Assembly (NCBI GenBank): GCA_964016885.1
Contig: OZ024746.1
Location: 13,206,001 to 13,270,000, forward strand
From: Eledone cirrhosa
Lineage: Eukaryota
DNA length: 64,000 bases
Reading direction: 5' to 3'
Of the stretch, positions 6,876 through 63,143 are shown piece after piece (positions within the stretch are counted from its first letter, which is position 1; every line of letters begins with the position of its first letter). A program made the translations under genes and the position numbers. A model generated the notes under the pieces. That model was not told the DNA's origin and searched no databases. It saw nothing but the letters and a program-made list of their open reading frames with translations.

Positions 6876-7071
6876 AATCTGTCCACTAATAAAGATACCA
6901 TAAACATTTAAATTAACAAACCTGTGTTTTTAGATATTTTCTTTCAAATCATTACCGGATGTTAATAATGATAATAATAAAGAAATTATTGTGTATAGTG
7001 GTCAGGTGCACTACAACTCATCAAAGGTGCATGTATAGTACATAGAATAATGTATAAATGTCAGGGAAGAG

Positions 7072-12577: not shown

Positions 12578-12724
12578 CAACTCTGTCTTGCTCACTGTTA
12601 TAACAATAATTCTCAATTAACAACACTAAATGTTGTTTAGCCACAAAATGTTATTTTTCTAAGCTCTGTAATGAAGACAAACGAACAAATTGAACAGTTT
12701 CTGAATACATAAAAATGATCTTAC

Positions 12725-12850
12725 CAAGTAATCTTGTTGTAGTGTTTCCAGAAGATATTTGAGCAAACCTCGCGTGTCCGATAGCAGGGAGCTTTGTAGA
12801 AACAACTTTGTGTTCTCCAATAAACCCAATGGTATAAACATTGGATTCTC
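12725..12850 (-). CDS. Coding exon (126 nt), N-terminal part of the phosphorylase domain
   Basis: cag/gtaag boundaries, phase 1-1. Reads (G)ESNVYTIGFIGEHKVVSTKLPAIGHARFAQISSGNTTTRLL(G) and joins both neighbours in frame. Confidence 0.9.
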
Positions 12851-17255: not shown

Positions 17256-17399
17256 CTTCTGTTTTATATTTCATGTATGTGGTCTTGTTTTCCATCATGG
17301 CATCAACTGCAAGTTTTTCATAGTACATAGCTGTGATGATAGCAATGGTTGGTTGTTGGTTGGCAGCAATTGTTGGCATCTGTTTTACAAGTTGAACTT
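17256..17399 (-). CDS. Coding exon (144 nt)
   Basis: tag/gtttg boundaries, phase 1-1. Reads (E)VQLVKQMPTIAANQQPTIAIITAMYYEKLAVDAMMENKTTYMKYKTE(G). IAIITAM..E..AV matches the first strand/helix of Pfs-like domains. Confidence 0.88.
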
Positions 17400-18660: not shown

Positions 18661-18779
18661 CTGATTTTTCATCTAATACGTGTCTCATGAATCCACCCTG
18701 CTCCATTTCTGTCACCAAATTACGTACATTGAGTTCTTTCAGTTGTTCACGAACCATTACTTCATCAGCAGCAGTGATT
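18661..18779 (-). CDS. Coding exon (119 nt), winged-helix-like region
   Basis: tag/gttcg boundaries, phase 2-1. Reads (R)ITAADEVMVREQLKELNVRKLVTEMEQGGFMRHVLDEKS(E). Confidence 0.85.
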
Positions 18780-20683: not shown

Positions 20684-20792
20684 CGACAGATATCTTCTAC
20701 TGCTAAAATGTTGGGATATGCAGATTCCAATATATGTAACATCTTTTCACGGAGAATTTCATCCTTTGGACGATTGTCAATTTTAGGTAAAC
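20684..20792 (-). CDS. Coding exon (109 nt), winged-helix-like region
   Basis: tag/gtgag boundaries, phase 1-2. Reads (G)LPKIDNRPKDEILREKMLHILESAYPNILAVEDIC(R). Confidence 0.85.
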
Positions 20793-26160: not shown

Positions 26161-27323
26161 ACTGCAAGACTGTCAGATGCTCTAATGTTTACACAATTCC
26201 TCCTCCTTAGACTGGTTCTATATTTAATGATTTTTTAAAGTATGAAGGGCAAAACTAACCTCACCTTGTGAAACTACTACACTACTATTGCTGCCACTAC
26301 CATCATTACTCACAAGGTAATGGTCAACCTAAGGCTTAGGTAGAAGACACTTGTTAGGGGAATTCATTAAAATAATATTTAAGGCAAGAATGTCTTGAAG
26401 GATTGAGCATATATATGCAAATTGATATATAATATGACTAATGCATATTGAAATGTAAACTATTCAAATAAACAAGAAAATATTTAAAAGACAAAGAAAT
26501 GTTTTAGAAAATCCACCAACTTTTAACAATAAAGATGGATCTACAACACAAAATAAAATCCACAGACGTATATGAATGAAAGATTTGGTAACTTAAGCAA
26601 CCCAAATAACCTTATGGAAAATAAGAATATTAATTTTCACAAATACATCTAGCTATTAATATTTATTCTAAAAAAAAACTGACATGTTTTTTTTTTATAA
26701 GAAATCCTGAAGCAACACAATTGCCTTATACTTCTTTAGAAAAACTGTAGTATTTCCTTCAAATAATACATTCAAAATAAAATACCCTATAAATTTCCAG
26801 AGACGTAGTGTGAGGAAATAGATATAGAATAATATTTTGAAAAATAAATTTTTAAAAGAACAATATTTGTCAGTATGGCTACTCATGTAAATAAGGCATT
26901 CAGGACATTAAATAGTGAACTAAATAGATAAATAAATATAAATATTCATTGTTACAGGGACAACATCAACATGCAACAATACCATAGAATAACAGACAAC
27001 TAGAATATTTAACCAGTTGCAACTTTTCAGATTTAAATATACAAATCAGACAATACTGAATTTATGTCAACCCTGGTCCTGTTAATTACTTATTTATACT
27101 TAATATATATGAAATCAGCATTATGCCGACAATATCTTGTCATCTTGTCACACCATGTATGTAACTGTGAGACCATGTATGTAACTGTGAGACCACCAGG
27201 CCAGATATTTTTTTTTTAAATGACAGGAGCAGGGTTAAACACACACACAACAGCAAGAACAAATGTCAGGAATAGAAATGGAAAAAGTAATAATGATAAA
27301 TACAGCATGCATGGGTTACTTAC

Positions 27324-27338
27324 CGTCTACAGTCATTC
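27324..27338 (-). CDS. 15-nt microexon (G)MTVD(G), containing an in-frame ATG
   Basis: catgcag|GAATGACTGTAGACG|gtaagt. Phase 1-1 and in frame with the 20684-20792 exon. Confidence 0.7.
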
Positions 27339-33691: not shown

Positions 33692-33957
33692 TTATAAAGC
33701 AGTGTGTACCATACGTTCTGATTTCAATTAATATATTAATGAAATGTAATTTTTTTAATTTTTCAAAATTTTAATTGATTAAAATATTTACATGCTCAAT
33801 TAAACTTACTGTAAACTATTTGAAATTTTCTCAAGATAGATAAGCCTCAAATCTCTTCCAAACAAAAATCAGTCACAAAATTAATCGTCAGTTTAAAAAC
33901 AATAACCAAAACAATTTTAATAGAACACCATGCCTGAAGCATTAACTAAATACCTAC

Positions 33958-33987
33958 CAACAATAATTGGCGCCGAAAATCTGTCTT
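33958..33987 (-). CDS. 30-nt microexon (E)DRFSAPIIV
   Basis: ttttttcttactag|...|gtaggta, phase 1-1, open frame. Confidence 0.7.
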
Positions 33988-34697
33988 CTAGTAAGAAAAA
34001 AAAGATATCTATATATATATGCATAAAGGTGTCAGCTATTTTATATAAAGTATGAAATTACATTACTTAAATACATCTTTATAATTAAAACTTAAATGAA
34101 ATGTTCTTAATACTTATAATACTCATACACATCATTTTCTATTGCATGTTACAGTTCTGATATGGATTGTTTAGGAATTCTAGTTACGTAACTCCCGAGA
34201 GAGTCGTAGGGCACCACATTGACATATGGTGTTTCTAGGGTATTCTTTAAACCTAGCAGAGCCCATCTCCTCTCTAGGTCTGAATACAGCAGATTTCTTC
34301 CAAAGAAGGATAGAGAGAGTGAGAGAATGGAAGTGATAAATAAATATAGAGGAAGAATCGACCTCAGTACTAGACTGGTACTTTTTTTATTGACCTTGAA
34401 TGGATGAAAAGCATACAAAAATGCAACTAATCAGGAACTTTCAACACATGTCTACTCATCCTAGTTTCAAACTGATTCTAAAATAAGAACCAAATCACTA
34501 GCATACATTGCAGATACCAAAACTAGATCTAATTTATAATAGTCTGGAGTCTTAGGATGAAGACAGGCTCAAGTGAATAATTATAGTAATGTAAATACTT
34601 TACTCAACTTTTGACATTTGAACAAATAAAACTAAATTGTGTTATTTGTACATATTTTCAAACTGTCAACTATCCTTTTAAAAACACATTAATATAA

Positions 34698-36445: not shown

Positions 36446-36782
36446 GTATTGGGTATATTAAACCTGGTGGAGCCCATCCTTCTCCAGGTCAGAACACAGT
36501 CAATCTCTTCCAATACTTAACTGGTACTTTAGGTATGAACCCCAAAAGGATGAAAGGTAAAGTAAACCTCTGTAGGATTTTAATTCAAAGTGCAGTGAGT
36601 AGAAACAAATACTGAGGCATTTTTAATCTGCCACCCTAAAGACTCCATTTGCCACCATTGTAGCAAAGTTTAAAGAGATATTTAAGACATATTTTCATAT
36701 GAGTTAACTATGAAATGGTGGCAATCACTATGAGTATGATAATGAAATGATGAGAACTATGAGATAGCAGCTAGTTACCTAC

Positions 36783-36815
36783 CATCGATATCAGCATCAC
36801 TGATTACTTCTTCTG
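36783..36815 (-). CDS. 33-nt microexon, type B, (A)EEVISDADID
   Basis: tttctgttccag|CAG...|gtaggta. Paralog of the 39891, 42093, 43953 and 46200 exons. NAGNAG acceptor. Confidence 0.8.
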
Positions 36816-38905: not shown

Positions 38906-39890
38906 GGCATATTGTCTATATGCTTCAGCTTGTACCCATATATATATATCATACACAACACTTGCTACACACTCACACACTAAATTCACAACTCTATCAA
39001 ATGTACTCATGTTTTTCCTCTAAGACATCATTTATATTTTTAAATTCTACCGGAAGTAAATTTACAAATACCATCAATATAGTCATATAGTTCTATTTAC
39101 CTTCAATTCTACATAACGATACCATCAAGATACAATAAAAGTTTTAAAAACTGTTATAAACTGCAATAACATATATACTAATTCTGAAGTACTGCAACGG
39201 AGACCCTCTCCTCCACTCCTTCACTACCACCACCACCACCAAATAACCTGGCTTTAGCAGCTGGAACTGTAACAATAACATTTGACAGACACCAACAGCT
39301 AAAGGCTAATTTATGTTTTATATTTCTATACAGCACCAAAACCAAAGGTTACCACTTCATTGCAAACAAGAGATTTATTGAGAAATAAATGTCAGCTGTA
39401 TGGTTTTATGTGCAGAGTTATAGCAAAACTGGGGAGAGGAGATAATTTGGTAAATCAATGAGATCAATATTGACAAAGGTCACTTTCCTATATGGAGTAA
39501 ATACAGCAATGTTGAGAACTATCATAGACGTTCTAAGTTAGGAAATTAAAGAAATTCCAGGTAACATTTTCACATAATTACATTAATAATACAAAACAAT
39601 TGAGATTTAACTTTTAACGCTCTCTACCACATGAGCAAGACTTTCTTGCAAAGTACAAAATATTACTACACTATGAGTGCATCACATGAAAAATTAAAGC
39701 CTTTACCTTAATACAACAAATTTTCACAACAATCTACCCATTAGTTAAGATAATATAAACATTTGAATTAACAAACAAGTTTTTAGATATTTTCTGTTAA
39801 ATTATTACAGGATGATAATAGCTTCCTACATTAAATAAAATGTATAATAATGAAGTGATGAGAACTATAAGATAGCAGCTAGTTACCTAC

Positions 39891-39923
39891 CATCGAAATC
39901 AATATCACTGATTACTTCTTCAA
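39891..39923 (-). CDS. 33-nt microexon, type B, (V)EEVISDIDFD
   Basis: tttttgttccag|...|gtaggta, phase 1-1. Confidence 0.8.
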
Positions 39924-40567
39924 CTGGAACAAAAACAAGAGGTATTTCAATAAGGATATGATAGAATATTACACATTTCTATAAAAGTTGATTAGTTTCA
40001 AACCACAGCAATATTTCTTGATTAATGTTGAACAAAGCAAGCCTTTAGCAACAATTTCTTATGATTTCATCAATACAACAGTAATAAACAGGATTTTATT
40101 GAGTTACCACTGAAGATATTTTCTTCAAGTATGCTCAATACCAGTTATGCAGATACACTGAGTTAAAATACAACTAAGTGTTTCATTGGGAGCTTACCCC
40201 ACACACACCCTAAATGTTCACATTTACAGAAAAAAATCAGTTAACTAAGAATTTATTCTCTCAAAAATGATGAATTCTTACAATTTTAGGCATATCACAG
40301 TTGACAAAAATAAATATTGATATTTCATTTTGAATGTTAATGAATAAACCAAACTTCAAATAACTAATATCCAAAATTAACTATTTATGAAAAACTACAA
40401 CAGAACAGATTATGAAGATATTTAAATGTAGAACTTCCCATTTAAAATGTTATGGAGAAGACAAGATTTTCTTTTATAACAAAACCTTAACAAATTAAAT
40501 AACTATATGTAATAAAAAACACAGAGAAATGTTAAAACATCATGCAAATCAGCCATAAGGTACCTAC

Positions 40568-40594
40568 CCACTCCAACTGGGGGTGGTAAGTCTT
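40568..40594 (-). CDS. 27-nt microexon, type A, (E)DLPPPVGV
   Basis: taatag|...|gtaggta, phase 1-1, UGCAUG at +22. Confidence 0.78.
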
Positions 40595-42092
40595 CTATTA
40601 ATGTAAAACAAAAATACAGTAAATAACAGTGATATTTTAAAGAATGTATAATACATATTATGTTAACATTTTGATATTGAAAGAAGCACAAGACGTATTT
40701 GAGTATCTAAGTAGACAAAGTATTTGTGTCTAAACAAAACTGTACATTACAGAAAGTTATGATTGCTTATTGCAATCATAAAACTATTTACAATTTGACC
40801 TCAATTATCCAAATGGTGGGAAGTGTTTTGTTCAAATAACTAATATCATTGCAATCAAAGAGAGCCATACTGAACACAGGATTGTTTTATGAGTTCTCTA
40901 ATGTTGTACACCTGTGCAAACTTTTGTACCTTTTCATCACGATCCAGATGCTGTAAAATCTCGTATTTCTCATCAATTGTTAATTGTGTTTACTTTCTGT
41001 TCTGAGATATGGTAACAGCAACAATTAACAGATATATACTCTGAACAAGTCATAGACTTAATTAAGGCACCAATGTCTTTGTCATACCTTTAAATCCTTC
41101 AACAAATTAGAGGCTTTTATGAGATAAAAATATTTTAACAGTTTAACACTTCAGGATTTAAACCGGCCAGAAATCTCTCACCTCTTTCTGTTCAAACCAG
41201 TTAAGGTATTGTTCTCAAAATAAATAATATCAAAATCTCATAGATTTGATACCATACGAGATAATTATGGAAGGTAAAGCCTTTACTGTGCAAATATAAA
41301 AGTAAATATAGAGTAATGTAAATGATAAAAAGTTAAATTGACTAAGATTAAAGTAGTAGACTGACCAAGCCATGATATTGTATACAAAAGATGCAATCAT
41401 TCCACCAATGTTGGTAACACATCTTTAATGTTATACTTTCACATATTCTTTAGTACAAATTCACTTTCAATCCTTGTATACAGAATATAAAATGATAAAA
41501 CCAGTATTATCCTCTAGGTCAGTATGGTTAATCAAATATTCATGGGACTTTGAGATCTGATCCAGATAATTGATGTTTGGATAACTGAGGTTTGATTGTA
41601 ATCAAGTTTTGAGAGATCTGATCCTTTATCAGAAGTTAAATTTAAACAAAAGTAGAAATAACAGACAAATGTTTAGTAACAATAGTGTTCCAACAAAAGC
41701 GTAACACTTCCATTTCTAAAGAGATTTATAATGTTCTCATGCTGTGCTGTGCACCCTTAACTCCTAGTGGAGTCGAAGGGACACTGTTGTGACATACAAC
41801 ACATCTTTGGTACTTTTAAACCTGGCAGAGCCCATCCCTCTCTGGGTCTGACTGAACACAGCTGATTTCTTCCAGAAAAGAGTGGAGAGAGAAAGAAAGA
41901 GATATGGAAGAAGAAGAATCAACCCTAGTATTGAACTGGTACTTTATCAACCTTGTAAGGTTCAAAGGCAAAGTTGACCTTGGCAAAATAATTATACTAT
42001 TCAGCTTATACAATGTCATCAGAGATACCAAATAATTAAGTTATGAATGAAATGTTCTAGATTGAGATAATGAGGATTATCTAGTTACCTAC

Positions 42093-42125
42093 CATCAATA
42101 TCAATATCACTGATCATTTCCTCAA
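42093..42125 (-). CDS. 33-nt microexon, type B, (V)EEMISDIDID
   Basis: tttctgttccag|...|gtaggta, phase 1-1. Confidence 0.8.
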
Positions 42126-42839
42126 CTGGAACAGAAATATGATAGATTTCAGCAAAGATATAATGGAATTATAAACATTTGTGTTAAACATTATTAGTTT
42201 TAAACCACAGCAATATTTGTTGGTAAATTTTGAAGAAGCAAAAACTTAAACAATAAACTTCAACCATCTCATCAAAAACTAGAAAATAGTTTGATTTCAT
42301 AGACAGCTTATAAACTAAACTTTTACTGAAATTCTACCATAAAAAAACTAGATTTCCCAGCATATTTACAAGCTCTGTTCATCTATAGCTGTGTATTTCC
42401 TACTATATAAAGATATACAATCATCACTTTACATGTTTCCATGATTGTAACACCAAAAAATATATATTTCATACATTATGTGCCTTAAACAACTTTCAGA
42501 AGATTGCTCTGAGAAATCTTCAATAAAGGTGCATGACTCAATAATAACGCTAAGCAAATTTCTATATTTATGGAGTTTATGTTCTACCTATCTGTAACTA
42601 AATCCTTTCTAAAAGCTTTAGAATTCAGTGGAGATTTTATACCAGTTAGTGATTCTGACATTAATATTACTATGCAGACTGAGAAATATTTGCTATTTTA
42701 TGATATTTCTTTTTGAGTTAAACATTGTGGCCATATATTGTTTGATGTAGCTATGAAATTGTATGATATGGCTGAGATTTGTGAATTAATAGGATTGCAC
42801 ATCGTTAAATGACTATGAAGAGATTCTGTTCCACGATGT

Positions 42840-43080
42840 TCAGTCTTTACCTTAATAGACTATTAATTTTGCAAAATATGAATGGCTACACAATGGATGC
42901 TGTTAGAAAGGAGTTAATCAACATATTCAAAAAGTTAGATTTAAAGATAACAAACTGTAGATATGAATGTAAGCATAATTAATTTCTTAGATATAACTCT
43001 ACAGAAACTACCTTATATTAATATAAATTTGAGCCATCCCCCCAATAATTCTGAAAAAAAAAACTAGCTAATAACATTAG
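42840..43080 (+). mobile_element. Penelope-like retroelement remnant
   Basis: Frameshifted KELINIFKKLDLKIT...INFLDITL...SHPP motifs. Confidence 0.5.
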
Positions 43081-43332
43081 TGAGTGGAAACTTCTTTATA
43101 ATGACAGTTCCTATCTACCCAATTTTACTGACATGGCATTGGTTGACCCAAGGCTAAATGATACTTGCCCAAGATACCATTTGGTGGGATTGAACCCAGG
43201 AGTTAATGATTGTGAGACAAACTTCTTAACTAAGTTACATCTACAGTAAATTTATATTTGTAAAATAATGTTGAAAACAAATAATGTGAGGACATGTTAA
43301 AAGAGCATGCAAATGAGCCATGAGATACCTAC

Positions 43333-43359
43333 CAAAGTCAATTGGAGGTGGTAGATCTT
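43333..43359 (-). CDS. 27-nt microexon, type A, (E)DLPPPIDF
   Basis: gattag|...|gtaggta, phase 1-1, UGCAUG at +22. Confidence 0.78.
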
Positions 43360-43952
43360 CTAATCATGTAAAATAAAAGTCAAAGATGTAAATATATTTG
43401 ATTTAAATAAATACTGTTAATATATTACACAGCTATTAATTCAGTATTGGAACATATACTAAACTTTAGGTTATATGCTGAACCAATAAAAACACACACA
43501 AAAGAGGTTTTATTGACAGCACAACAATCAGTAAATTACAATATTATAAAGTATGAAAATCAATTTCACTAAAAAAAGGAATTTATAATCCTTATTAATA
43601 AGATTATACATTATAAATATACCTTTTTGAAAGCCTTACAGTTTTGCCCAGGATTTTATAGTTAAATTAAAGTCTTTTCAAAATATTATTTATAATGAAT
43701 GGTGACATTTTAATAGTCAAACATCTGGCTTTTATTGAGTTCTAAATAACTTAAAGTAACCAAAAAACGAAACATTTCAGCTATTTTACTAAATCTCTTC
43801 AAATTCTAGATTATTATGAAAATTAATTGAAACATCGGCAGGAAATAATTAAAGTTGTCATCAGAAATACCAAATAATCAATGAAGTATTACAAATTGAC
43901 TCCTATATTAAATAGAATGATGAGAACTATGAGATAGGAGCTAGTTACCTAC

Positions 43953-43985
43953 CATCGATATCAATATCACTGATTGCTTCTTCAA
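43953..43985 (-). CDS. 33-nt microexon, type B, (V)EEAISDIDID
   Basis: ttccgttccag|...|gtaggta, phase 1-1. Confidence 0.8.
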
Positions 43986-44461
43986 CTGGAACGGAAATAT
44001 GACAGATTTCAGCAAAGATGTGGAATTATAAACATTTATGTTAAACATTATTAGTTTCAAACCACAAGAATAATTCTTGATTAATTTTGAGCAACACAAA
44101 GCTGAAGGAATTATTTTCAATCTCCTCATTAACTATGGAATAGGTTCAATAAGTAATAATTACGCTAAAGACTTACTTCAATTGCTACAGTACTACTAAG
44201 TATATGGTAAATAGTTATACACAAAAATAATTATAAAAACACTATATTTTTTCATTGATGTATTATTTATTTGACTTTGTTTTTCAAAAGTTTGTTTCTA
44301 TTTTTCAATTAAGTTCTGATTCTACTAGAAAATACTATTAATTCCTCAAACCTAATTTCTTTTAACAGGAAGTCTTAAAGGGCTTGACTTAATTTATTAA
44401 ACTTGTTTGAAATGTCTAAAAGTTTTAGATGATGCTTAAAGCAAGAATATGTATGTGCATG

Positions 44462-44492
<31 letters not shown>

Positions 44493-44698
44493 ACAGACAC
44501 ATTTCAAACAGACATTATCCAACTATTTATGAAAAGCTACAACAGAACAGGTTTTGAAGATATTTAAAGGTAGAACTTCCCATTTAAAATGTTATGGAGA
44601 AGACAAGATTTTCTTTTATAACAAGTTAAATGACTATATGTAATAAAGAACACAGAGAAATGTTAAAACATCATGCAAATCAGCCATAAGGTACCTAC

Positions 44699-44725
44699 CC
44701 ACTCCAACAGGGGGTGGTAAGTCTT
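44699..44725 (-). CDS. 27-nt microexon, type A, (E)DLPPPVGV
   Basis: taatag|...|gtaggta. Differs from the 40568 copy by one synonymous change (CCA/CCT). Confidence 0.78.
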
Positions 44726-45199
44726 CTATTAATGTAAAACAAAAATACAGTAAATAACAGTGATATTTTAAGGAATGTATAATATATCAACATTTCATAA
44801 TATATATCAATATATCAATGTTAACAACATTTTGATATTGAAAGAGACACAAGAAATTAGTGTTTGGCTATTAGAAACGCATAATATATAAATGTATTTT
44901 ATTAATGGCAGATCAATTAATAAGATACTGTTATAGTGATATAAAAGCAAACTAAACTACTTTGATACAATTTCTTATCTTTCTGCCAACGCATTTCTCT
45001 GGAATTTCCTTTCCATCCATATCTATCCTTTAACAATTCAAGCTGAACTTCAATATTATTGGGTTTGATCCCAGAGAGTCTCTGGTCTCTACACAATCAT
45101 ATGTTTAAGGAGATTGTACATGTGATAAGTACAGCAAAAGTAAACCTGTAGCAAGAGAATCTCCAAAATTCTATATGGTAGGAGGCAGCAAATCATAGT

Positions 45200-45440
45200 C
45201 AGGAACAGTTATGCCATGCAGGGCACAAGAAACAAGTCTTCTGTGTGTTGCAGATGACTGGGAGTGTACAGCAGACCTCTCAGGATTGACAAAATTTGAA
45301 ATCATCAGGAAGAGTAACTTGAGGCCGGACATCATACTCCATTCCAGTTCATCAAAACAGCTGACTTTCATTGAACTCACTGTGCCATTGGAAAGTAGAA
45401 TAAAAGAAGCAGACATGTTCAAGACCGAAAATATCTAAAT
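45200..45440 (+). mobile_element. Non-LTR retroelement restriction-like endonuclease fragment
   Basis: LRPDIILHS...QLTFIELTVPLE is a PD..(D/E) REL-type motif. Confidence 0.7.
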
Positions 45441-45978
45441 ATCAGCAAAAGGGCACCCAGGAGACATGACCTGGATGTGGCCTGGCCCCCTTAGAGTGTA
45501 CAAAGTTGAGGGCTAAAACACTTGCTTGAAGAAGGGGTTCTCCTCTGAAGACCTTCTGCTCTCCAGCTCTCCTGAAAGTTTCTTGCTACTACAACGGATA
45601 TTCAGATTATTGTATATTTGATTTCTAAAGAGATCTGACAACAAAATCAGTGTATATAATTTGTTATGTAATAAATAAAAAAATTGTTAGTGGCCTAGAA
45701 GTTTCCAAGAAAAATTTAGTAAATTCTTTCTCTAAATTGAACAATGTTAATTAAAGAAAATAGACACTCCTCTCTCTCTCCTTTTGCCTCTTCCTTCTCC
45801 TAGTAAATATGGTTCCCTTTCTTCTTCCTCTCACTGTTACCACATTTCTTGTGATAAACATTACCCTCCCCACTCTCTCTCTTTCTCCAACAGTGTAACT
45901 TATGTTTGTACATAAGTAGATTATTTTTATAGATATTCAGCTACACAAAGGACAGATTATAAAATCCCACTTTCCAAA

Positions 45979-46153
45979 GCTATTAATACCCCTAAAGTGA
46001 ATAAGATGCTATTAATATCCCTAAAGTGAATAAGATGCTATTAATATCCCTAAAGTGAATAAGATGCTAGTAATATCCCTAAAGTGAATAAGATGCTAAT
46101 AATACCCCTAATGTGAATAAGATGCTAATAATACCCCTAATGTGAATAAGATG
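45979..46153. repeat. 29-bp tandem repeat, about 6 copies
   Basis: Unit GCTATTAATATCCCTAAAGTGAATAAGAT. Confidence 0.92.
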
Positions 46154-46199
46154 TAAAAGATGGATTTGAACAGAACTAACACAGCATCTAATTACATAC

Positions 46200-46232
46200 C
46201 ATCAATATCAGCACCATTGACCACTTCTTCAA
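46200..46232 (-). CDS. 33-nt microexon, type B, (V)EEVVNGADID
   Basis: tttctgttccag|...|gtatgt, phase 1-1. Confidence 0.78.
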
Positions 46233-47379
46233 CTGGAACAGAAATAGGATAGAATTCAACAAAAATACCACAAAAGACTTATCAGCTCAATAACAAACCA
46301 CAGCAGCATTTGTTGATTAATACCGGTTATTAAAAGCAACACACAGCAATCCAACAATTGATTGATATTAGTTGTATAAAGATATACCATTTATGGTAAT
46401 TTTGTGAAAATATATTTAGTATATAAAACATGTGCCATGTTATTAGATATATCTATAACATCCTTACATATGTAGAATGTCTTATAAATGTGAAACTAGA
46501 TGGTCAGAATAAAGGAACATCAATCAGAAAGCCTTAATGTAAAGTGTAACATCAATGTCAGAATATATATATCAACATATATGATGCAAGAGAAAAAAAA
46601 AACATTAGGCAGCCATGTACTGAGATTTCCATGATTGACAAAGAACAACTGTGAAAGCTATAAAAATATCAAAGATGCAGTACATAGAATGCTTACTAGT
46701 AACTTGTTTAGTAAGCACAATACTGTCATAAGGTAAATAATCTAAAGTTTCAACGATATTTGTAGATATGGCCTAGTACAGAAAAATGTTACTACCTCTA
46801 GTACAGAAGAGTGTTACTACCTCTAGTACAGAAGAGTGTTACTTATTACCTCTAGGACAGAAATAAAGGTTTTAGTTGAACTTCTGTCTGGAACTATGTA
46901 CAGACCCAGTAAAGAGGCACTGATGTCAATTGAAGATCAAATAAATCAAAAAGTAGTGTAAATATAGATATTGTAAATATAAACTCATTATGTTACTGAG
47001 AATGATTAAATTCATTAGCAATGAAACTTAACTTTGTTCAAATTAAAATAACAATATTTGAAAAAAGTTAATATGTTAGTTACAAATTAATGTAAAACTA
47101 AAACAAATAAAGAAGAAACACTTCATAGGATTTAAATAAAGGTATTTAGAAAGTGGATTAACTCACAAAATAAATTTATAAAATTAGTGGAGTGTATCAG
47201 AAACAAAGCAAACTTATTCCTATTTATAAAAAGATTTATTATGCTTACTCTCAAATTTGTTTTGGTTGTCTGTAGTTTAAGTTATAATAAATTTAATAAC
47301 CACCCAAATATTGCACTTATTTCATGAAAATAATCAAATCATCTGGTTCCTACAGCATCACAGCAACAGGCCACAATGC

Positions 47380-47830
47380 TCTTTCATCTTTCTCTGTCTT
47401 TGGCAAGGGTTAGAGCTTGAAACCTGTTGGTGCCACACCTGCATAGGTCATCTTTTAAGGTGGATCTCTAGGTCTTCTTTGGGCTACCCTTTCATCTTTT
47501 CCCACCAGCTGGCAACCATGACATTGGAGTTCTTGCTGGTATATTGTTCCACATTCGTAGGATATGTCCTGTCAGCTGCATTCTTCTGGTCTTGATGACA
47601 TGGTTTAGGTGTGTGGCATTGGTTCTTCAAAACACATCTTCATTTGTGATGTTGTCTTGCCATCTAATACCCAGGATCTTTAAAAGACATCTTTGTTGGA
47701 AAGTATCAAGCTGTTTTTCCGTTCTGACAGTACTCTTCCATGTGTCAACAGCATAGGTTGTTGAGTTAACAATTGACCGGAATAATCTCAATTTTGTTGT
47801 TTGTGATGTGGGCGTCTTTAATTGCCATAT
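47380..47830 (-). mobile_element. RTE LINE ORF2 3' fragment
   Basis: TKLRLFRSIV...YAVDTW...LDTFQQRCLLKILGIRWQDNITNEDV. Confidence 0.85.
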
Positions 47831-49436
47831 TATATACACACCAATACAGATCACTTTCTCCATACACGTTTAACAAGCAAGATAAATGCCTTCTCACTAC
47901 TAAGAAATACTCTCAGTTTTCTTCTATCCACTGTTTCTCCTGCACTAGGCTTTGATAACATTGAGATCAGGTTTATTCATCCTAATTTTATACCAATATG
48001 AAACTGAGAAACTGCAGATCACAGTAAATACTGGATTTCTCAGTTTCTTTTAACATTCGCACAGCAGGTGGGATTTATTTAGAACTAAGCAGCTTTCTCT
48101 ATTACCTGTTCTCACTGATGCACAACATGACAAACTCTTAAACATAAAATAGATCTCTCTCATGAGAGGGTGAAGCAGTTTAAGGCCCCAATGTTCATAG
48201 ACTACATTTCACTGACAATATAAATGTAAAATTGTAAAATAAAGGTTCCTTAACTCCTGATGTAGTCCTGAAACATGGCGTGTCTTGAGCATTTTAAACC
48301 TGGTAGAGCTCATCCCTCTCCAGGGCATAACACAGCTGATTTCTTCCAGAGAAAGAAAGCATAGGCCTCAGTACTAAACTGGTACTTTATTTATCAACCC
48401 TAAAAAGATGACAGGTAAAGTTGCATTTTTTTATCCGATGCTCTAATGACTATATATATATACATCTGTACAAATATGCACAGATATGCAACCATGAAAT
48501 AACTGCCAATAATCCAAGTCATTTGAACTATGTTAAAATATAGCAATTGAATATGTGATACTTTACTTATACAGCAATGAAAGTATAAAAATCGTTGAAG
48601 TATTATAACATCTACTCTCAGTGCATGAGCCAACAGTGGCCCAGGAAATATCTAAGTATTCTAGAAGAGCAATTAACTGAATTATTTAACATTATTTGGG
48701 ATTTTGTTTTCATTTGTAATGGTGAGGCTTGCTAATATGGAAATAATTGTTGTTACATGAATTCTAGTAACAATGTGGTGAAGGTTAGCAGAACATGCAA
48801 CTAAACCTAAACATTTACAACTGAATGTTTTCTTTGATGCCAACCAGAATATAATTTTATTCATGACATGATGTCATAGCTATATACTACAGATGAAGAG
48901 TTTTTGTTGTTTTTTACATATGCTTTATATCAGCAACATATTTCAAAATTTTATGCTTTTCATAAACATCCTGTATATTATTAAATATACAATATGTACA
49001 TTCATATGCATTTCGCTGTCAGAGCACCAATACAAATTTTTAATTTATGCCAGGCTGGCTACTGTTCCGTATGCAAATGAGTTTCATCAGCTCATAAACA
49101 TAAGCAGAATTCTATAAGAATACAGCTTAATTTAACTTCACCAAAAGTGGGGAGATATCTAGTCTTGATAACCACTAATAAATCAGAAACTGGCATCGTC
49201 GATTACTTTCTCCTATCTTTACTGAAGCTAGGTATGACGTCCCAACCTTAAAATTCATAGTAAAAGGCCTTCCAAATGTTCTTCATAAACATCCTGTATA
49301 TTATTAAATTGAATTGATACAATATTTACATGTTAAAATACCTAACATTATGACCTTAGAGGTTTTAGTAAGTGGGGTTACATGACTATAGAGATATTTC
49401 AAGAAATACCATGCAGAACAATCAACAGATACCTAC

Positions 49437-49466
49437 CCAAGAAACTGGGAGGTGGTAAATCATCAT
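49437..49466 (-). CDS. 30-nt microexon, type A, (D)DDLPPPSFL
   Basis: cttataaag|...|gtaggta, phase 1-1, UGCAUG at +22. Confidence 0.72.
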
Positions 49467-50717: not shown

Positions 50718-50747
50718 CCTGAGAATAAAAAGTTTGTATTTCTTCCT
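50718..50747 (-). CDS. 30-nt microexon (E)EEIQTFYSQ
   Basis: ttttttgttcag|...|gtaggta, phase 1-1. Confidence 0.72.
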
Positions 50748-52032: not shown

Positions 52033-53204
52033 ATATAGTTAAATGTCAAAATAGTTCCTACAAACATTGGGCAATATAAACATACACATGTACACAGGTC
52101 TAAATGTTCTGTTAGTTATTTAGATGGCAAATAGTAAAATATGGAATTGAAAGGGTTATGATAAAGAGGTGGCAAACCAGTAATTAAAGGAAATAAATTC
52201 TTTGGACATCAGTTATTGAAAAGACATAAAATATAATTTAATGAAATTGCCAGACTGATCAATTAACAAATATTAATGGATTAATAGCTTTCTCATAAAA
52301 ACATAAGTGAAAAGTGAACTAGAAAGGAATTACTAAGTTCAAAGAAATCTCAACATGGAATTGAAAACAATAAAACAAATTAAACTAAATTTAGATTAAC
52401 TCTTAACATCCTGTACCACATGAAACTGCATTATCAAGACATTCTTGAAAAGTACAAAAATTACTTTCCTGTAGTGAGTAAATACAGCAATATTCAACTA
52501 GCAAAAAGGTTCTATGTTAGGAAATATAAGAAGTTCAAATTAACATATTCTTACAATTACATCACTAATAGGAAATAATTGGGATGTAATTTTTAACATC
52601 CAGTTCTGCATGAAACCACATTAGCAAGACATTCTTGACTGCATTCAAGATTAAAGTCTTTAATCATCTAATACTGCAAATTTTCACAACAATCTGTCCA
52701 CTGGTAAAAATACTATAAACATTTTAATCAGCAAATCCATTTTTAGATGTTTTTTGCTAATTCATTTCAGGATGTCAAGAGTTCAAAAGATATGCAGATA
52801 ATTCTATATTTTGGTAAATACCATCTTTACTATTCTGAAGAAACTAACAATAAAATCCAATGAAAATACTTCCTATTTCCATTGGGATAATAGATACTAA
52901 CATTAACTTACTTTGATATATTCCAGGGATGTAAAGGGATGTAACTAACTACCACAAGGTGTTTTGTCAGATATTTTACAATCTCTCAATTAGATATTTT
53001 TATATTTTCTTATAGGACAAAAGATATGAAAAATAAGTTTGTTAGGTGTTAAATGCAAAAATTTCTCAAAAAACAAAAAACTGTTAAGTTATGAAATCAA
53101 AAAAGTAGTTATGCTAATAAATTATTTTAAATGTTTCATCTAACTTCCATTATCTAATTAATTCAAACGCATGCAGTTTCTCACCAACAAAATATCTACA
53201 TTGT

Positions 53205-54200
53205 ATACACTCTACATATATATATCTGAGCTTATATGCCACTCATTATATACACTGTACATGTATATCTGAGCTATATGCCACCCATTGTATATACTCT
53301 ACATATATATATCAGAGCTATATACCACACAATGTATATACACTACATATATATCAGAGTTACATACCACACAATGTATATACGCTACATATATATCAGA
53401 GCTATATACCACACAATGTATATACGCTACATATATATCAGAGTTACATACCACACAATGTATATACGCTACATATATATCAGAGTTACATACCACACAA
53501 TGTATATACGCTACATATATATCAGAGTTACATACCACACAATGTATATACACTACATATATATCAGAGTTACATACCACACAATGTATATACACTACAT
53601 ATATATCTGAGCTATATACCACCCATTATATACACTACATATATATCAGAGCTACATACCACACAATGTATATACGCTACATATATATCAGAGTTACATA
53701 CCACACAATGTATATACACTACATATATATCGGAGCAATATGCCACCCATTATATACACTACATATATATCAGAGTTACACACCACACAATGTATATACA
53801 CTACATATATATCGGAGCAATATGCCACCCATTATATACACTACATATATATCAGAGCTATATAACACACAATGTATATACGCTACATATATATCTGAGC
53901 TATATACCACCCATTATATACGCTACATATATATCAGAGCTATATAACACACAATGTATATACGCTACATATATATCTGAGCTATATACCACCCATTATA
54001 TACACTACATATATATCAGAGCTATATAACACACAATGTATATACGCTACATATATATCTGAGCTATATACCACCCATTATATACACTACATATATATCA
54101 GAGCTATATAACACACAATGTATATACGCTACATATATATATCTGAGCTATATACCACCCATTATATACACTACATATATATCTGAGCTATATGCCACAC
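53205..54200. repeat. About 40-42-bp minisatellite
   Basis: Unit ATATATATCAGAGTTACATACCACACAATGTATATACGCTAC and variants. Confidence 0.95.
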
Positions 54201-54834: not shown

Positions 54835-56424
54835 AATACATCTTTCAGTTTAAACCAGTGGGTAAATTATAGCACAACACATCTTTCAGTTTAAACCAGT
54901 GGGTAAATTATAGCATAACACATCTTTCAGTTTAAACCAGTGGGTAAATTATAGCATAACACATCTTTCAGTTTTAAAAAAGTGGGTAAATTATAGCATA
55001 ACACATCTTTCAGTTTAAACCAGTGGGTAAATTATAGCATAACACATCTTTCAGTTTAAACCAGTGGGTAAATTATAGCATAACACATCTTTCAGTTTAA
55101 ACCAGTGGGTAAATTATAGCATAACACATCTTTCAGTTTAAACCAGTGAGTAAATTATAGCACAACACATCTTTCAGTTTAAACCAGTGGGTAAATTATA
55201 GCATAACACATCTTTCAGTTTAAACCAGTGAGTAAATTATAGCACAACACATCTTTCAGTTTAAACCAGTGGGTAAATTATAGCATAACACATCTTTCAG
55301 TTTAAACCAGTGGGTAAATTATAGCACAACAGATCTTTCAGTTTAAACCAGTGAGTAAATTATAGCACAACACATCTTTCAGTTTAAACCAGTGGGTAAA
55401 TTATAGCATAACACATCTTTCAGTTTAAACCAGTGGGTAAATTATAGCATAACATATCTTTCAGTTTAAACCAGTGGGTAAATTATAGCATAATACATCT
55501 TTCAGTTTAAACCAGTGGGTAAATTATAGCACAACACATCTTTCAGTTTAAACCAGTGGGTAAATTATAGCATAACACATCTTTCAGTTTAAACCAGTGA
55601 GTAAATTATAGCACAACACATCTTTCAGTTTAAACCAGTGGGTAAATTATAGCATAACAGATCTTTCAGTTTAAACCAGTGGGTAAATTATAGCATAACA
55701 CATCTTTCAGTTTAAACCAGTGGGTAAATTATAGCATAACACATTTTTCAGTTTAAACCAGTGGGTAAATTATAGCATAACACATCTTTCAGTTTAAACC
55801 AGTGGGTAAATTATAGCACAACACATCTTTCAGTTTAAACCAGTGGGTAAATTATAGCACAACACATCTTTCAGTTTAAACGAGTGAGTAAATTATAGCA
55901 TAACACATCTTTCAGTTTAAACCAGTGAGTAAATTATAGCACAACACATCTTTCAGTTTAAACCAGTGAGTAAATTATAGCATAAACATCTTTCAGTTTA
56001 AACCAGTGGGTAAATTATAGCATAACACATCTTTCAGTTTAAACCAGTGGGTAAATTATAGCACAACACATCTTTCAGTGTAAACCAGTGAGTAAATTAT
56101 AGCACAACACATCTTTCAGTTTAAACCAGTGAGTAAATTATAGCACAACACATCTTTCAGTTTAAACCAGTGAGTAAATTATAGCATAACACATCTTTCA
56201 GTTTAAACCAGTGAGTAAATTATAGCATAACACATCTTTCAGTTTAAACCAGTGGGTAAATTATAGCACAACACATCTTTCAGTTTAAACCAGTGGGTAA
56301 ATTATAGCATAACACATTTTTCAGTTTAAACCAGTGAGTAAATTATAGCACAACACATCTTTCAGTTTAAACCAATGGGTAAATTATAGCACAACACATC
56401 TTTCAGTTTAAACCAGTGGGTAAA
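54835..56424. repeat. 41-bp minisatellite, about 38 units
   Basis: Unit CATCTTTCAGTTTAAACCAGTGGGTAAATTATAGCATAACA. Confidence 0.97.
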
Positions 56425-56496
56425 CAGGGGTGGATATACCAGTGAAAATAAACCAACTTCATGCAATAAACTCTTTATGATACACAGTATACGCAC

Positions 56497-56529
56497 CAAC
56501 AACATCAGGAAGTGGACGTTCTTCTTCGT
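56497..56529 (-). CDS. 33-nt microexon (D)EEERPLPDVV
   Basis: aaatag|...|gtgcgt, phase 1-1. Paralog of the 56836 exon. Confidence 0.7.
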
Positions 56530-56835: not shown

Positions 56836-56865
56836 CAATAATATCAGGGAGTGGACACTCCACTT
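56836..56865 (-). CDS. 30-nt microexon (E)VECPLPDII
   Basis: ttttttatttgtgtag|...|gtacgt, phase 1-1. Confidence 0.72.
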
Positions 56866-58178: not shown

Positions 58179-58214
58179 CAGTTGTGGTTCGTTTAACTTC
58201 TTCAATTTTCTCTT
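58179..58214 (-). CDS. 36-nt microexon, type C, (E)EKIEEVKRTTT
   Basis: tgcttctcttcatag|...|gtaggta, phase 1-1. Confidence 0.78.
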
Positions 58215-59132
58215 CTATGAAGAGAAGCAAAATTATTATGAAACAGGTTGGATAAAATACAATTTTTCTTTTTCATTTTGTAAAAATTATAAAACAGCCA
58301 ATTAAGGAGGAAACCATATTTTTTTTCTGAACAAACCCATTAAATGTAGAAAGCTTCAAAGTATTTAAATATTATTGTTGTGATAGAAACACTTATATAA
58401 ATATATTTTTTAAATTAAGAAAAATGTAATATCTTTACTAGAGGTATTTCATTTCTTTATGAAAGAACAAAGATTCCAAACAAACTATTACAACGTACTT
58501 ATAGTTACCATTCTAACGTTTAATACTATGGGATTCTAATTTTAGAAAGTAGAATCTATGGAATTTCTGATACATTCATATTTTAATGTGGAATTTATTG
58601 CAGAAAAAAGAAAAAAAAGCCAGTACCTAATACAAGAAAGTTATCAATTAACAACGTTAGTTAACAAAGAACCAAAAAGAAAGCTTAACAGATCTTGCAA
58701 ATATATTTTGTATTGAAAACACAATTGGGTTGTAATTTTAAACTATTTATAAATTTTTTTCATATTTTTGCAAAAGTTTCATGTAGTTTGTTTGGAACAG
58801 TAAAGTTCCTAAGTCCATTATAAATGTTTCAAAACATTCAGAGTCTCAGAATAAAGTGATGTTGATATGTGTTGCTGCCTCTTTATAATAAAACTAAACT
58901 ACACCCATCACTCGCAATCTAATATGACTTATGATTTCGCTACGGGTTTTAGGTACCTGAGCAGTCGCAAGCAGACACAGACACCCTCTCAACCCTCACT
59001 CACATCATCAAAGAGAACATCCAGGATCTGAAAGAGGGCTATTTATGAAGATCCCTTCTCACTTTATAGAAGAGAAAATCTTTTATAAAACAACAAAGAT
59101 GAAAACGAGGTTAACTGATTTTAAATACCTAC

Positions 59133-59168
59133 CAGTCGTGGTTCGTTTAACTGCTTCAATTTTCTCTT
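59133..59168 (-). CDS. 36-nt microexon, type C, (E)EKIEAVKRTTT
   Basis: tgcttctcttgatag|...|gtaggta. Confidence 0.78.
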
Positions 59169-60090
59169 CTATCAAGAGAAGCAAATATCAATGAAGTTGA
59201 ATAAAATTATCATGAAATAGGTTGGATAAAATACAATTTTTCTTTTTCATTTTGTAAAAATTATAAAACAGCCAATTAAGGAGGAAACCATACTTTTTTT
59301 CTTAACAAACTCATTAAATGTAGAAAGCTTTAAAGCATTTAAATATTATTGTTGTGATAGAAAGACTTATATAAATATATTTTCTAAATTAAGAAAAATG
59401 TAATATATTTACTAGAGATATTTCATTTCTTTATGAAAGAACAAAGATTCCAAACAAACTATTGCGACATAGACAAAATCTAACAGATATTTCACACGTA
59501 GAATATTTATAGTTACCATTCTAACATTTATTACTATGGGATTCTAATTTTAGAAAGTAGAATCTATGGAAAAAAACTACACACATCACTCGCAATCTAA
59601 TATGACTTGGTAATATACATTATGATTTCACTATGGCTTTTAGGTACCTGAACAGTCACAAGCAGACACAGACACCCTCTCAACTCTCACTCACATCATC
59701 AAGGAGAATATCCAGGATGTCTAAGAGAGCTGTACCAGTGTTGGACTCCTACTTTCTTTATCAACACTGAAGGAATAAAAATAAAATGGACTTTGGTGAG
59801 ATTTGAACTCAGAACACAGAGACATTGAACAAATATCCAATGCTCAAATGACTGCCAAATTGACAGTCTTAACTGTGCTACTAGATATGTAAGCATCCAC
59901 ATAGATTGAACAATGAATTTCAATGACTGTGTTGTTAATATTTGCATCATTTACAGCAAAATAATAAGTATTCAGAGATTCTTACCTCAGTTTCAATCAC
60001 TGGGATTTGAACTCAGAATACAGAGACCCAGAACAAATGTCAAACACAACTTCCACACTTTATAGTAGTCAGAGCAAATGTATTTGATAT

Positions 60091-60465
60091 AATGGAGGCA
60101 CATGGCTTAGTGATTAGAGCATAGGCCTTGCCATCGAAAGGTTGTGAGTTCAATTCTCAGACCGGTTGATGTGTTGTTTCCTTGAGCAAGACACTTTATT
60201 TCACATTGCTCCAGTTTACTCAGCTGTAGAAATGAGATGATAGGGACTGGAGTCCCTAACATTCCACTGCAAAAAAGCACCCAGCCCACACTGTACAGAG
60301 GACTTGTAGGCGCCACGGAAAAAAAAAACACCCACCACTCACTGTAAATGAGGTTGGTGTTAGGAAGGGAATCCAGCTGTAGACATCAAAGCCAGAATCA
60401 GTTCCCGTCCCACCCTTGCAAGCAGGGAAAAGCGGACGTAAAATGAAATGATATATGATGATGAT
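60091..60465 (+). mobile_element. SINE inserted in one duplication unit only
   Basis: The paralogous empty site reads ttgatatagacattgctg near 62785-62802. Confidence 0.85.
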
Positions 60466-60784
60466 AGACATTGCTGCCAAAATTTGAATTTTAGCCATTA
60501 GATCCAACATCAGTCAGGTATCTATTGCATGTGAGTAGTGTATGTTATCTCTGTGTTTATTTTAAAATTTTACTATGTTAAGAATATTGCCTCCATCATC
60601 AATCATTTAATTTTATAAAGATTCTGTAGAGTATAGCTGTGTTGTCCACTAGGAATTTTCTATTCAGTTTTGTTCTATACATGATTTTCATATTTATAAA
60701 GATCCCTTCTGAATTTATAGAAGAGAAAATCTTTTCATAAAAAAACAAAAATGAAAGCTAATTGAACTTATTTTGGATACCTAC

Positions 60785-60820
60785 CCGTAGTGGCTTGTAT
60801 AATTTCTTCAATTTTCTCTT
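60785..60820 (-). CDS. 36-nt microexon, type C, (E)EKIEEIIQATT
   Basis: tgcttctcttgatag|...|gtaggta. Confidence 0.78.
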
Positions 60821-61783
60821 CTATCAAGAGAAGCAAAAATCAATGAAGTTGAATAAAATAATCATGAAACAGGTTGGATAAAATACAATTTTCCTTTTTC
60901 ATTTTGTAAAAATTATAAAAAAGGCCAATTAAGGAGGAAACCATAACATTTTCTTAACAAATCCATTAAATGTAGAAAGCTTTAAAGAATTTAAATATTA
61001 TTGCTGTGATAGAAACACTTATATAAATATATTTTTTAAATTAAGAAAAATGTAATATTTTTTACTAGAGGTACTTCATTTTTTTATGAAAGAACAAAGA
61101 TTCCAAACAAACTATTGCGACATACACAAAATCTAACAGATATTTCAGACGTAGAATACTTATAGTTACCATTCTAACGTTTAATACTATGTGATTCTAA
61201 TTTTAGAAAGTAGAATCTATGGAATTTCTGACACATTCATATTTTAATGTGGAATTTATTTCAGAAAAAAGAAAAAAGCCAGTTCCTAATACAAGACTGT
61301 TATAAATTAACAACGTTAATTAACAAAGAACCAAAAAGAAAGATTGACAGATCTTGCAAATATATTTTGTATTGAAAACACAATTGGGTTGTAATTTTAA
61401 CCTATATTCTTTTCATATTTTTGCAAGAGTTTCTTGTAGTTTGTTTAGAACAGTAAAGTTCCTAAATCCATCATAAATGTTTCGAGACATTCAGAGTCTC
61501 AGAATAAAGTGATATTGATATGTGTTGCTGCCTCTTTATGATAAAACTAAACCCATCACTCGCTATTTAATATGATTTGGTAATATGCATTATGAATTCG
61601 CTACGGGTTTTAGGTACCTGAGCAGTCGCAAACACCCTCTCAACCCTCACTCACTTTATCAAGGAGAAGATTCAGGATGTGAAAGAGGGCTATTTATGAA
61701 GATCCCTTCTGACTTTATAGAAGAGAACATTTTTTTTAAAACAACAGAAATGAAAACTAGTTGAACTGATTTTAAATACCTAC

Positions 61784-61819
61784 CAGTAGTGGTTCGTTTA
61801 ACTGCTTCAATTTTCTCTT
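61784..61819 (-). CDS. 36-nt microexon, type C, (E)EKIEAVKRTTT
   Basis: tgcttctcttgatag|...|gtaggta. Confidence 0.78.
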
Positions 61820-63107
61820 CTATCAAGAGAAGCAAAAATCAATGAAGTTGAATAAAATTATTATGAAACAGGTTGGATAAAATACAATTTTTCTTTTTCA
61901 TTTTGTAAAAATTATTAAACAACCAATTAAGGAGGAAACCATAATTTTTTCTTAACAAACCCATTAAATGTAGAAAGCTTTAAAGAATTTAAATATTATT
62001 TTTGTGATAGAAACACTTATATAAATATATTTTCTAAATTGAGAAAAACGTAATATTTTTACTAGAGATATTTCATTTCTTTATGAAAGAACAAAGATTC
62101 CAAACAAACTATTACAATGTACACAAACCCTAACAGACATTTCAGATGTAGAATACTTATAGTTACCATTCTAACATTTAATACTATGAGATTCTAATTT
62201 TAGAAAGTAGAATCTATGGAATTTCTGACACACGTGATGTTGACATGTGTTGCTGCCTTTTTTATAATAAAACTAAATTACACCCATCACTCGCAATCTA
62301 ATATGACTTGGTAATAAACATCATGATTTCACTATGGCTTTTAGGTACCTGAACAGTCATAAGCAGACACAGACACCCTCTCAACTCTCACTCACATCAT
62401 CAAGGAGAACATCCAGGATATCAAAGAGAGCTATACCAGTGTTGGACTCCTACTTTCTTTATCAACACTGAAAGGATGAAAAATAAAATGGACTTTGGTG
62501 AGATTTGAACTCAGAACACAGAGACATTGAACAAAGATCCAATGCTCAAATGACTGCCAAATTGACAGTCTTAACTGTGCTACTAGATATGTAAGCATCC
62601 ACATAGATTGAACAATGAATTTCAATGACTGTGTTGTTAATATTTGCAACATTTACAGCAAAATATTAAGTATTCAGAGATTCTTACCTCAGTTTCAATC
62701 ACTGGGATTTGAACTCAGAATACAGAGACCCAGAACAAATATCAAACTGTCTTTCACACTTTATATTAGTCAGAGCAAATGTAATTGATATAGACATTGC
62801 TGTCAAAATTTCAATTTTGGCCATTAGATCCAACATCAGTCAGGTATATATTGTTTGTGACTAGTCTATCTTATCTGTGAGTTTATTTTAAAATTGTACT
62901 GTGTTAAGAATATTGCCTCCATCATCAACCATTTAATTTTATAAGAGTATAGCAATGTTGTCCACTAGTATTTTCTATTCAGTTTTGTTCTATGTATCCA
63001 TACATGATTTTCATATTTATGAAGATCCCTTCTGACTTTATAGAAGAGAAAATCTTTTTATAAAAAACCAACAATGAAAACTAGTTTCACTGATTTTGAA
63101 TACCTAC

Positions 63108-63143
63108 CAGTAGTGGCTTGTTTAACTTCTTCAATTTTCTCTT
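63108..63143 (-). CDS. 36-nt microexon, type C, (E)EKIEEVKQATT
   Basis: tgcttctcttcgtag|...|gtaggta. Confidence 0.78.

Follow-up and report, generated by a model that had tools for sequence, protein, structure and literature searches.

Downstream-intron enhancers to which members of the Rbfox (Fox-1) family bind are described for NMHC-B exon N30 and fibronectin EIIIB (PMC2777236), and the rule for this family is that downstream sites enhance inclusion (PMC2777236). In Drosophila, the same motif and a muscle role for Rbfox are reported (PMC8742874), and an Rbfox-like transcript is reported from Octopus vulgaris (PMC5736919). Here, we analysed a 64,000-nt stretch of Eledone cirrhosa DNA (assembly GCA_964016885.1, contig OZ024746.1, positions 13,206,001 to 13,270,000; C6 in our numbering of the 3.0 Gb genome), hereafter the window, which contains most of an array of microexons in a minus-strand gene for an octopod protein with a winged helix and a nucleosidase fold. 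As in the known Rbfox systems, (U)GCAUG lies downstream of alternative exons at this locus, and the genome encodes an Rbfox with the same RRM motif and with UGCAUG around its own RRM exon. In contrast to those systems, in which clusters of sites surround one cassette exon, the array has single sites after ten exons in the tight interval of +14 to +33. None of the papers found contained a functional test of Rbfox enhancers in a mollusc. We propose that these UGCAUG elements are Rbfox-bound enhancers spread across the array that help to splice most of it in as one tissue-specific block, a reading to which we give a probability of about 0.65.

The array was resolved using 200 kb of upstream DNA beyond the window. 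It consists of 31 phase-1, frame-preserving microexons of 15-39 nt, belonging to 11 families, between two constitutive exons, in the order V, Q, P6, fourteen K, C, R, E, A4, B4, A3, B3, A2, B2, A1, B1, B0, D and M; together they amount to 339 codons with zero stops, 47% P/E/V/K and 30% D/E. The PEVK region of titin likewise contains many short duplicated exons; splicing alters its length, as do duplications particular to single lineages (PMC6469411). The array shares with it short duplicated exons, a P/E/V/K-rich composition and variable length, since the K exon has 14 copies here and one in O. sinensis models and a decapodiform-type insert reaches 476 residues, but its host is an unrelated winged-helix/nucleosidase-fold protein, its exons are only 15-39 nt and its product is strongly acidic. 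A titin-like PEVK spring was considered in view of the 47% PEVK content, but a sarcomeric or elastic role is not supported, as the host is a winged-helix/nucleosidase-fold protein and the resemblance is confined to architecture. Runs of tiny symmetric exons that give many similar isoforms are also known from the micro-exon genes (MEGs) of schistosomes, and VAL-6 carries such a segment within an ordinary gene (PMC4350168); MEGs encode secreted parasite proteins made mostly of microexons, whereas the array adds an optional stretch to a protein that is conserved and folded. A further counterpart is the Octopus sinensis ortholog LOC115212809, which has 91% identity in the last exon, the same microexon order according to its RefSeq models and isoforms annotated up to X48, and which differs from E. 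cirrhosa in having a single K exon in those models.

The preliminary description of the window had placed UGCAUG at intron position +22 after all four DLPPP exons, and this was confirmed. Plus-strand CATGCA is found at 40541-40546 after A1 (40568-40594, 27 nt), at 43306-43311 after A2 (43333-43359, 27 nt), at 44672-44677 after A3 (44699-44725, 27 nt) and at 49410-49415 after A4 (49437-49466, 30 nt, DDLPPP, with an AAG acceptor); these exons, and the other exons and motif sites of this gene given below, lie on the minus strand. The other sites it named were correct as well, namely UGCAUG at +32 after R (56460-56465), UGCAUG at +13 after M (27306-27311) and GCAUG at +25 after D (33929-33933). 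Beyond the window, UGCAUG follows V at +25, and GCAUG follows Q at +22 and P6 at +23. Across the array, the start of GCAUG falls between +14 and +33 in the introns that follow 10 of the 31 exons. The seven families concerned, out of 11, are V, Q, P6, R, A, D and M, four of them with the full hexamer. None of nine constitutive donors has GCAUG within 150 nt, and GCAUG is absent within 300 nt downstream of the five B exons and within 150 nt downstream of the 14 K exons (nearest at +542), in agreement with the earlier statement that exons of types B and C lack the motif if K is taken as its undefined type C. In the last 60 nt upstream of the array exons, (U)GCAUG was found only before M.

Compared with a background of 0.0197 for a random 31-nt window of the gene, the motif is enriched downstream of the families (binomial p 3.5e-10, taking families as independent). 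In addition, GCATG ranks first among the 1024 pentamers downstream of the families (Bonferroni 5.7e-7), and no other pentamer is comparably significant. The four A copies carry less weight than their number suggests. Over 28 nt around the hexamer, A1 and A3 are identical (28/28), A2 matches either of them at 22/28 and A4 matches each other copy at 13/28, so that chance retention of the six bases is about 1.0 for A1/A3, 0.24 for A2 and 0.01 for A4. Because these copies are paralogous with such flanks, they are worth two or three observations, and only A4 is informative alone. Hence the suggestion that the motif is kept where the surrounding intron has diverged stands for A4 but not for A1/A3 or, at 22/28, for A2. 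Given an offset that differs from one family to the next, and no second word shared to a similar degree, the persistence of GCAUG across families appears to fit selection better than carry-over.

Most array exons have alike acceptor contexts and GTAGGTA donor contexts, and the families differ in the adenine content of their acceptors. Counted over the last 10 nt, adenines number 3-5 in Q, P6, R and A, 0-2 in V, D and M, and 0-1 in K, C, E and B; acceptors with 3-5 adenines thus occur in 4/7 motif families versus 0/4 motif-less families. UGC close to the 3' splice site is a typical feature of SRRM4/eMIC-dependent microexons. It is present at -8 in V and at -15 in all K exons, and absent within 35 nt in A, R, C, E and D and within 30 nt in Q and P6. 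A different motif marks the introns after B exons, where B0 (36783-36815, 33 nt) is followed by nine copies of YCAY, a Nova-type motif, in 74 nt (36703-36776; background fraction 0.002), and B1-B4 by weaker tracts of 2-4 copies. These tracts could reflect a second regulator with a separate Nova-type input.

To see how the exons are joined, we compared four sequencing runs (X1-X4) with read coverage of 39850-44440, an interval that excludes A4, B4, R, D and M. Run X4 has no RNA record and is taken as RNA-like from its joints. A single unbranched X4 contig (depth 167.4) joins B3 (43953-43985), A2, B2 (42093-42125), A1 and B1 (39891-39923) at exact GT-AG ends, so that A2, B2 and A1 have spliced joints on both sides and the two outer 33-nt acidic exons on one, whereas none of these four joints is present in X1-X3. 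X4 depth is 0-6.7 in repeat-free, purely intronic bins, and a second X4 contig (depth 146.5) has the A3-diagnostic base. Because the X4 bin depths over A2, B2 and B1 each equal one contig, co-inclusion of A and B exons is the dominant path in this sample. No exon skipping was seen in E. cirrhosa in the X4 contigs, which drop rare variants.

The RefSeq models of O. sinensis (n = 18; 15 from a 48-member cluster plus X46-X48) show a graded pattern. V, Q, P6, K, R, A4, A1, B1, B0 and D are included in 18/18, C and E in 16, M in 15, B3 in 13, B2 in 12, A2 and A3 in 11 and B4 in 8. B4 is skipped without any A exon in five models and A2 is skipped alone in one, while A3 is never skipped without an adjacent B. 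Models lacking all A or all B exons number 0/18, without tissue resolution. Short models of Octopus and Argonauta contain no array, M only, or V and M, and lack both A and B; similar short forms are found among decapodiform-type proteins. Taken together, the model data are consistent with a block that is either on or off, though somewhat leaky, chiefly at the spacers, and the X4 joints together with the short and long models of related species establish that the array exons are real and alternatively spliced.

We located Rbfox in the genome through a known RRM motif, which gave a single match. The matching RRM exon agrees with RBFOX1/2 and ASD-1 structure chains and is followed by the next two RRM exons; Pfam Fox-1_C has no match in the genome. 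The third RRM exon (93 nt; C23, L026 9266-9358) has GCATG at -8, overlapping the acceptor region, and again just inside the donor. UGCAUG at both ends of this exon is likely an autoregulatory signature, as judged from sequence, and conserved UGCAUG elements surround the skipped, autoregulated RRM exon of mammalian Fox-2 (PMC2777236). An RRM exon of RBM24/38/SUP-12 type is also present (one exon, whose best single-domain matches are RBM38-type and SUP-12 chains). With the position of the sites, their enrichment and an Rbfox in the genome, the Rbfox-type downstream enhancer reading put forward in the preliminary description appears well supported.

We propose that Rbfox bound 13-33 nt past the donor would help to define these microexons, among which Q, P6, R and A have acceptors that are A-rich and weak. 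Binding near the donor would compensate for the weak acceptors and seed exon definition that spreads to motif-less neighbours. The motif-less K, C, E and B exons have cleaner acceptors, and their inclusion would follow from that of activated neighbours or depend on another factor. The resulting long isoform would contain an acidic, PEVK-like and probably disordered spacer of about 340 residues in a flexible linker.

A second protein may take part. In C. elegans, the UGCAUGGUGUGC element of egl-15 is bound jointly by ASD-1/FOX-1 and SUP-12 (bioRxiv 10.1101/2024.07.12.603345), and ASD-1/SUP-12 regulation has a muscle role (PMC4588554). The array may resemble this case in that GCAUG is followed by one base and UGU in 4-5 of the seven motif families, and both protein families are encoded in the genome; it differs in that egl-15 has its element upstream of exon 5B, one of two mutually exclusive exons, whereas the array sites lie downstream with a shorter GU tract. 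The N-UGU extension follows the A1, A3 and M sites, GUGU follows the D site, and GCAUGGUGU is found after P6 and D; a full GUGUG tract after GCAUG was not found in the array. The extension is present at 3.4% of 436 background sites, giving p 4.5e-5 to 1e-6. More speculatively, GCAUG-N-UGU would recruit an RBM24/38 (SUP-12-type) partner and yield a muscle-type long form, where the muscle specificity is speculative and drawn from the N-UGU extension and the PEVK-like composition alone. In its widest form, the proposal is that cephalopods independently built a titin-PEVK-like, length-tunable acidic spacer in an uncharacterised nucleosidase-fold protein by serial duplication of a microexon cassette carrying a composite Rbfox + RBM24/SUP-12 enhancer (GCAUG-N-UGU at about +22), and that the exons with this enhancer act as seeds from which all 31 exons, enhancer-less ones too, are included specifically in muscle. 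We offer this as a tentative idea with the odds clearly against it.

Several observations weigh against block inclusion through Rbfox. The motif is missing after 21 of the 31 exons; K, B1 and B0, retained by all 18 long models, are among these, and so Rbfox cannot be the whole switch. Short models that lack A, Q, P6, R and D can contain V and M, both of which bear the motif, and 3/18 long models omit M; therefore, the motif does not dictate joint inclusion. The acceptor comparison covers only 11 families, whose probable common ancestry inflates the significance of the binomial test, and the test of the N-UGU extension is post hoc. The X4 evidence comes from a single run, its type and tissue unrecorded, from the same study as the DNA runs; its contigs drop rare variants, and 77 further joints are outside the set considered. 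The O. sinensis models are predictions, in which the identity of A1 and A3 can produce false skips. In a rival arrangement with two tiers, V and M would be included by themselves in a single tissue, probably a neural one, inclusion of the long block would depend on a further or different factor, and the Rbfox sites would tune rather than gate. The short Octopus models with M only or V and M, the similar decapodiform-type short forms, the UGC at -8 in V and -15 in all K at an SRRM4/eMIC-typical position, and the constant presence of motif-less K, B1 and B0 in long models all agree with it. It leaves unexplained the motif beside weak acceptors in the block exons Q, P6, R, A and D, and it is compatible with, and partly overlaps, the block explanation; we regard it as unlikely.

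The preliminary description had gone further and suggested that the proline modules are switched as a class, independently of the acidic spacers; on that model, Rbfox acting on A exons would give spacer-only or proline-only isoforms. The motif after 4/4 A versus 0/5 B exons, the YCAY-rich tracts after B exons as a possible separate Nova-type input, the separate skipping of B4 (5/18) and of A2 (1/18), and A-to-A joins in O. bimaculoides models speak for it. The motif is, however, not tied to proline: it follows 3/4 families with at least two prolines and 4/7 of the others, including the proline-free exons VKMETTVNS, QEIQQTVVY and MTVD, whereas VECPLPDII, a proline exon, lacks it. X4 joins B-A-B-A-B in a single unbranched contig, and all 18 O. 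sinensis models keep A4, A1, B1 and B0. The class-wide claim is not supported and is unlikely; since B4 is skipped without any A exon in 5/18 models, a weaker version survives in which spacers can drop out while proline exons stay. An even lower chance is given to the view that the motif belonged to an ancestral cassette and was copied, unselected, as tandem duplication and gene conversion multiplied it. A 278-nt block is common to A1 and A3 (40379-40656 and 44521-44787; 92% identity), with 28/28 flanks, and the alike acceptor and GTAGGTA donor contexts suggest common descent. As both A1 and A3 are also present in O. sinensis, with identical peptides, this likeness suggests gene conversion. 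In opposition to unselected copying, the offset shifts from +14 to +33 while GCATG persists as the sole strongly shared pentamer, A4 keeps its hexamer at 13/28 flank identity, and the identical exon order in O. sinensis implies that the families are old. Inclusion of most of the array as one block, helped by Rbfox, thus remains our preferred explanation.

The remaining exons of the array in the window are five K exons of 36 nt without a downstream motif (63108-63143, 61784-61819, 60785-60820, 59133-59168 and 58179-58214), the motif-less C exon VECPLPDII (56836-56865, 30 nt), which has an ortholog in O. sinensis models, the R exon RPLPD (56497-56529, 33 nt) with its weak A-rich acceptor, the motif-less E exon (50718-50747, 30 nt), the acidic B4 exon (46200-46232, 33 nt), which the O. 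sinensis models omit most frequently, the D exon (33958-33987, 30 nt) and the M exon MTVD (27324-27338, 15 nt). Twelve further microexons, V, Q, P6 and nine K, lie outside the window (C6 13,291,935-13,270,130), and the 14 K copies form tandem units of 0.5-1.6 kb (58179-63143 in the window plus the nine beyond it). The decapodiform-type inserts of up to 476 residues are from proteins that share a 90% cluster with a Sepia protein or that match such proteins outside the insert, and a G(L/M)TAD peptide occupies the same linker as the M microexon in decapodiform-type and bivalve homologs. Immediately upstream of D, 33987-34009 translates to the DIFFFL peptide that is added in O. sinensis models, which suggests a putative conserved alternative acceptor. 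A candidate 15-nt microexon, DSNMDY, in intron 1 (C6 ~13,334,376) matches the optional GSNFDY peptide of Octopus isoforms, and GCAUG is absent at +7 to +80 from it. Long intronic minisatellites were seen by eye at about 7800-12600, 54900-56430, 53200-54170 and 5800-6900, one of which starts about 60 nt past the R donor.

Genome-wide, donor plus motif gave 664 matches versus 324 for the reverse complement, but these counts come mostly from TATG-type microsatellites and were left unused. A pattern derived from the array exons gave 12 genome-wide matches, six of them in the host gene; being circular, it indicates no more than that the cassette is not a dispersed repeat. Folding of six motif regions gave z of -0.81 to +0.32 and no common structure, and a role for local RNA structure was rejected. 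When metagenomes were scanned for an A exon with its donor, there were 0 matches.

Past the array, the first constitutive exon (20684-20792) begins the winged-helix domain, with a Pfam match to HTH_69 (PF22979), and 18661-18779 continues it. The nucleosidase-like fold begins in 17256-17399, followed by 12725-12850 and by the last coding exon with the stop codon (666-1408), whose nucleosidase/phosphorylase-like product is 96% identical to an Argonauta hians protein. In the predicted structure of the A. hians short isoform (mean pLDDT 85.2), an N-terminal alpha/beta domain is followed by a linker, the winged helix and a C-terminal domain. In the linker, pLDDT falls below 50 at residues 159-163, and the array is inserted at this least ordered part of the predicted linker, at the junction of the N-terminal domain and the winged helix. 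A sequence comparison of the short isoform with solved structures gave no match (best E 0.64), and Foldseek with the short-isoform model finds MTA/SAH nucleosidases (methylthioadenosine/S-adenosylhomocysteine; best E 4.1e-12, 14-19% identity). In the model, the C-terminal domain resembles a nucleosidase/phosphorylase-like fold. The protein belongs to a conserved, functionally uncharacterised protostome family, HTH_69/PNP_UDP_1-like. Homologs from chitons, bivalves, gastropods and arthropods have optional short inserts at the equivalent linker, with a GLTAD peptide in Mercenaria. A neighbouring minus-strand gene (C6 ~13,417,000-13,437,000) has many short glycine-rich phase-1 exons and an hnRNP-like composition.

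The array exons are already contained in RefSeq models of relatives, and the Rbfox regulatory principle itself is textbook knowledge. No literature on the array or its intronic motifs was found, with subscription journals outside the coverage; a preprint (bioRxiv 10.64898/2026.09.05.749416) includes octopus tissues and covers tissue-specific exons of O. bimaculoides. How a single splicing factor may switch dozens of consecutive microexons together could be tested naturally and compactly in the array, because motif-bearing and motif-less exons alternate in it, with weak and strong acceptors. On sequence evidence, it extends the Rbfox code to a mollusc, a putative autoregulatory signature included. 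In addition, it draws attention to a protostome protein that is conserved and unstudied, in whose linker optional inserts recur and, in cephalopods, reach several hundred residues.

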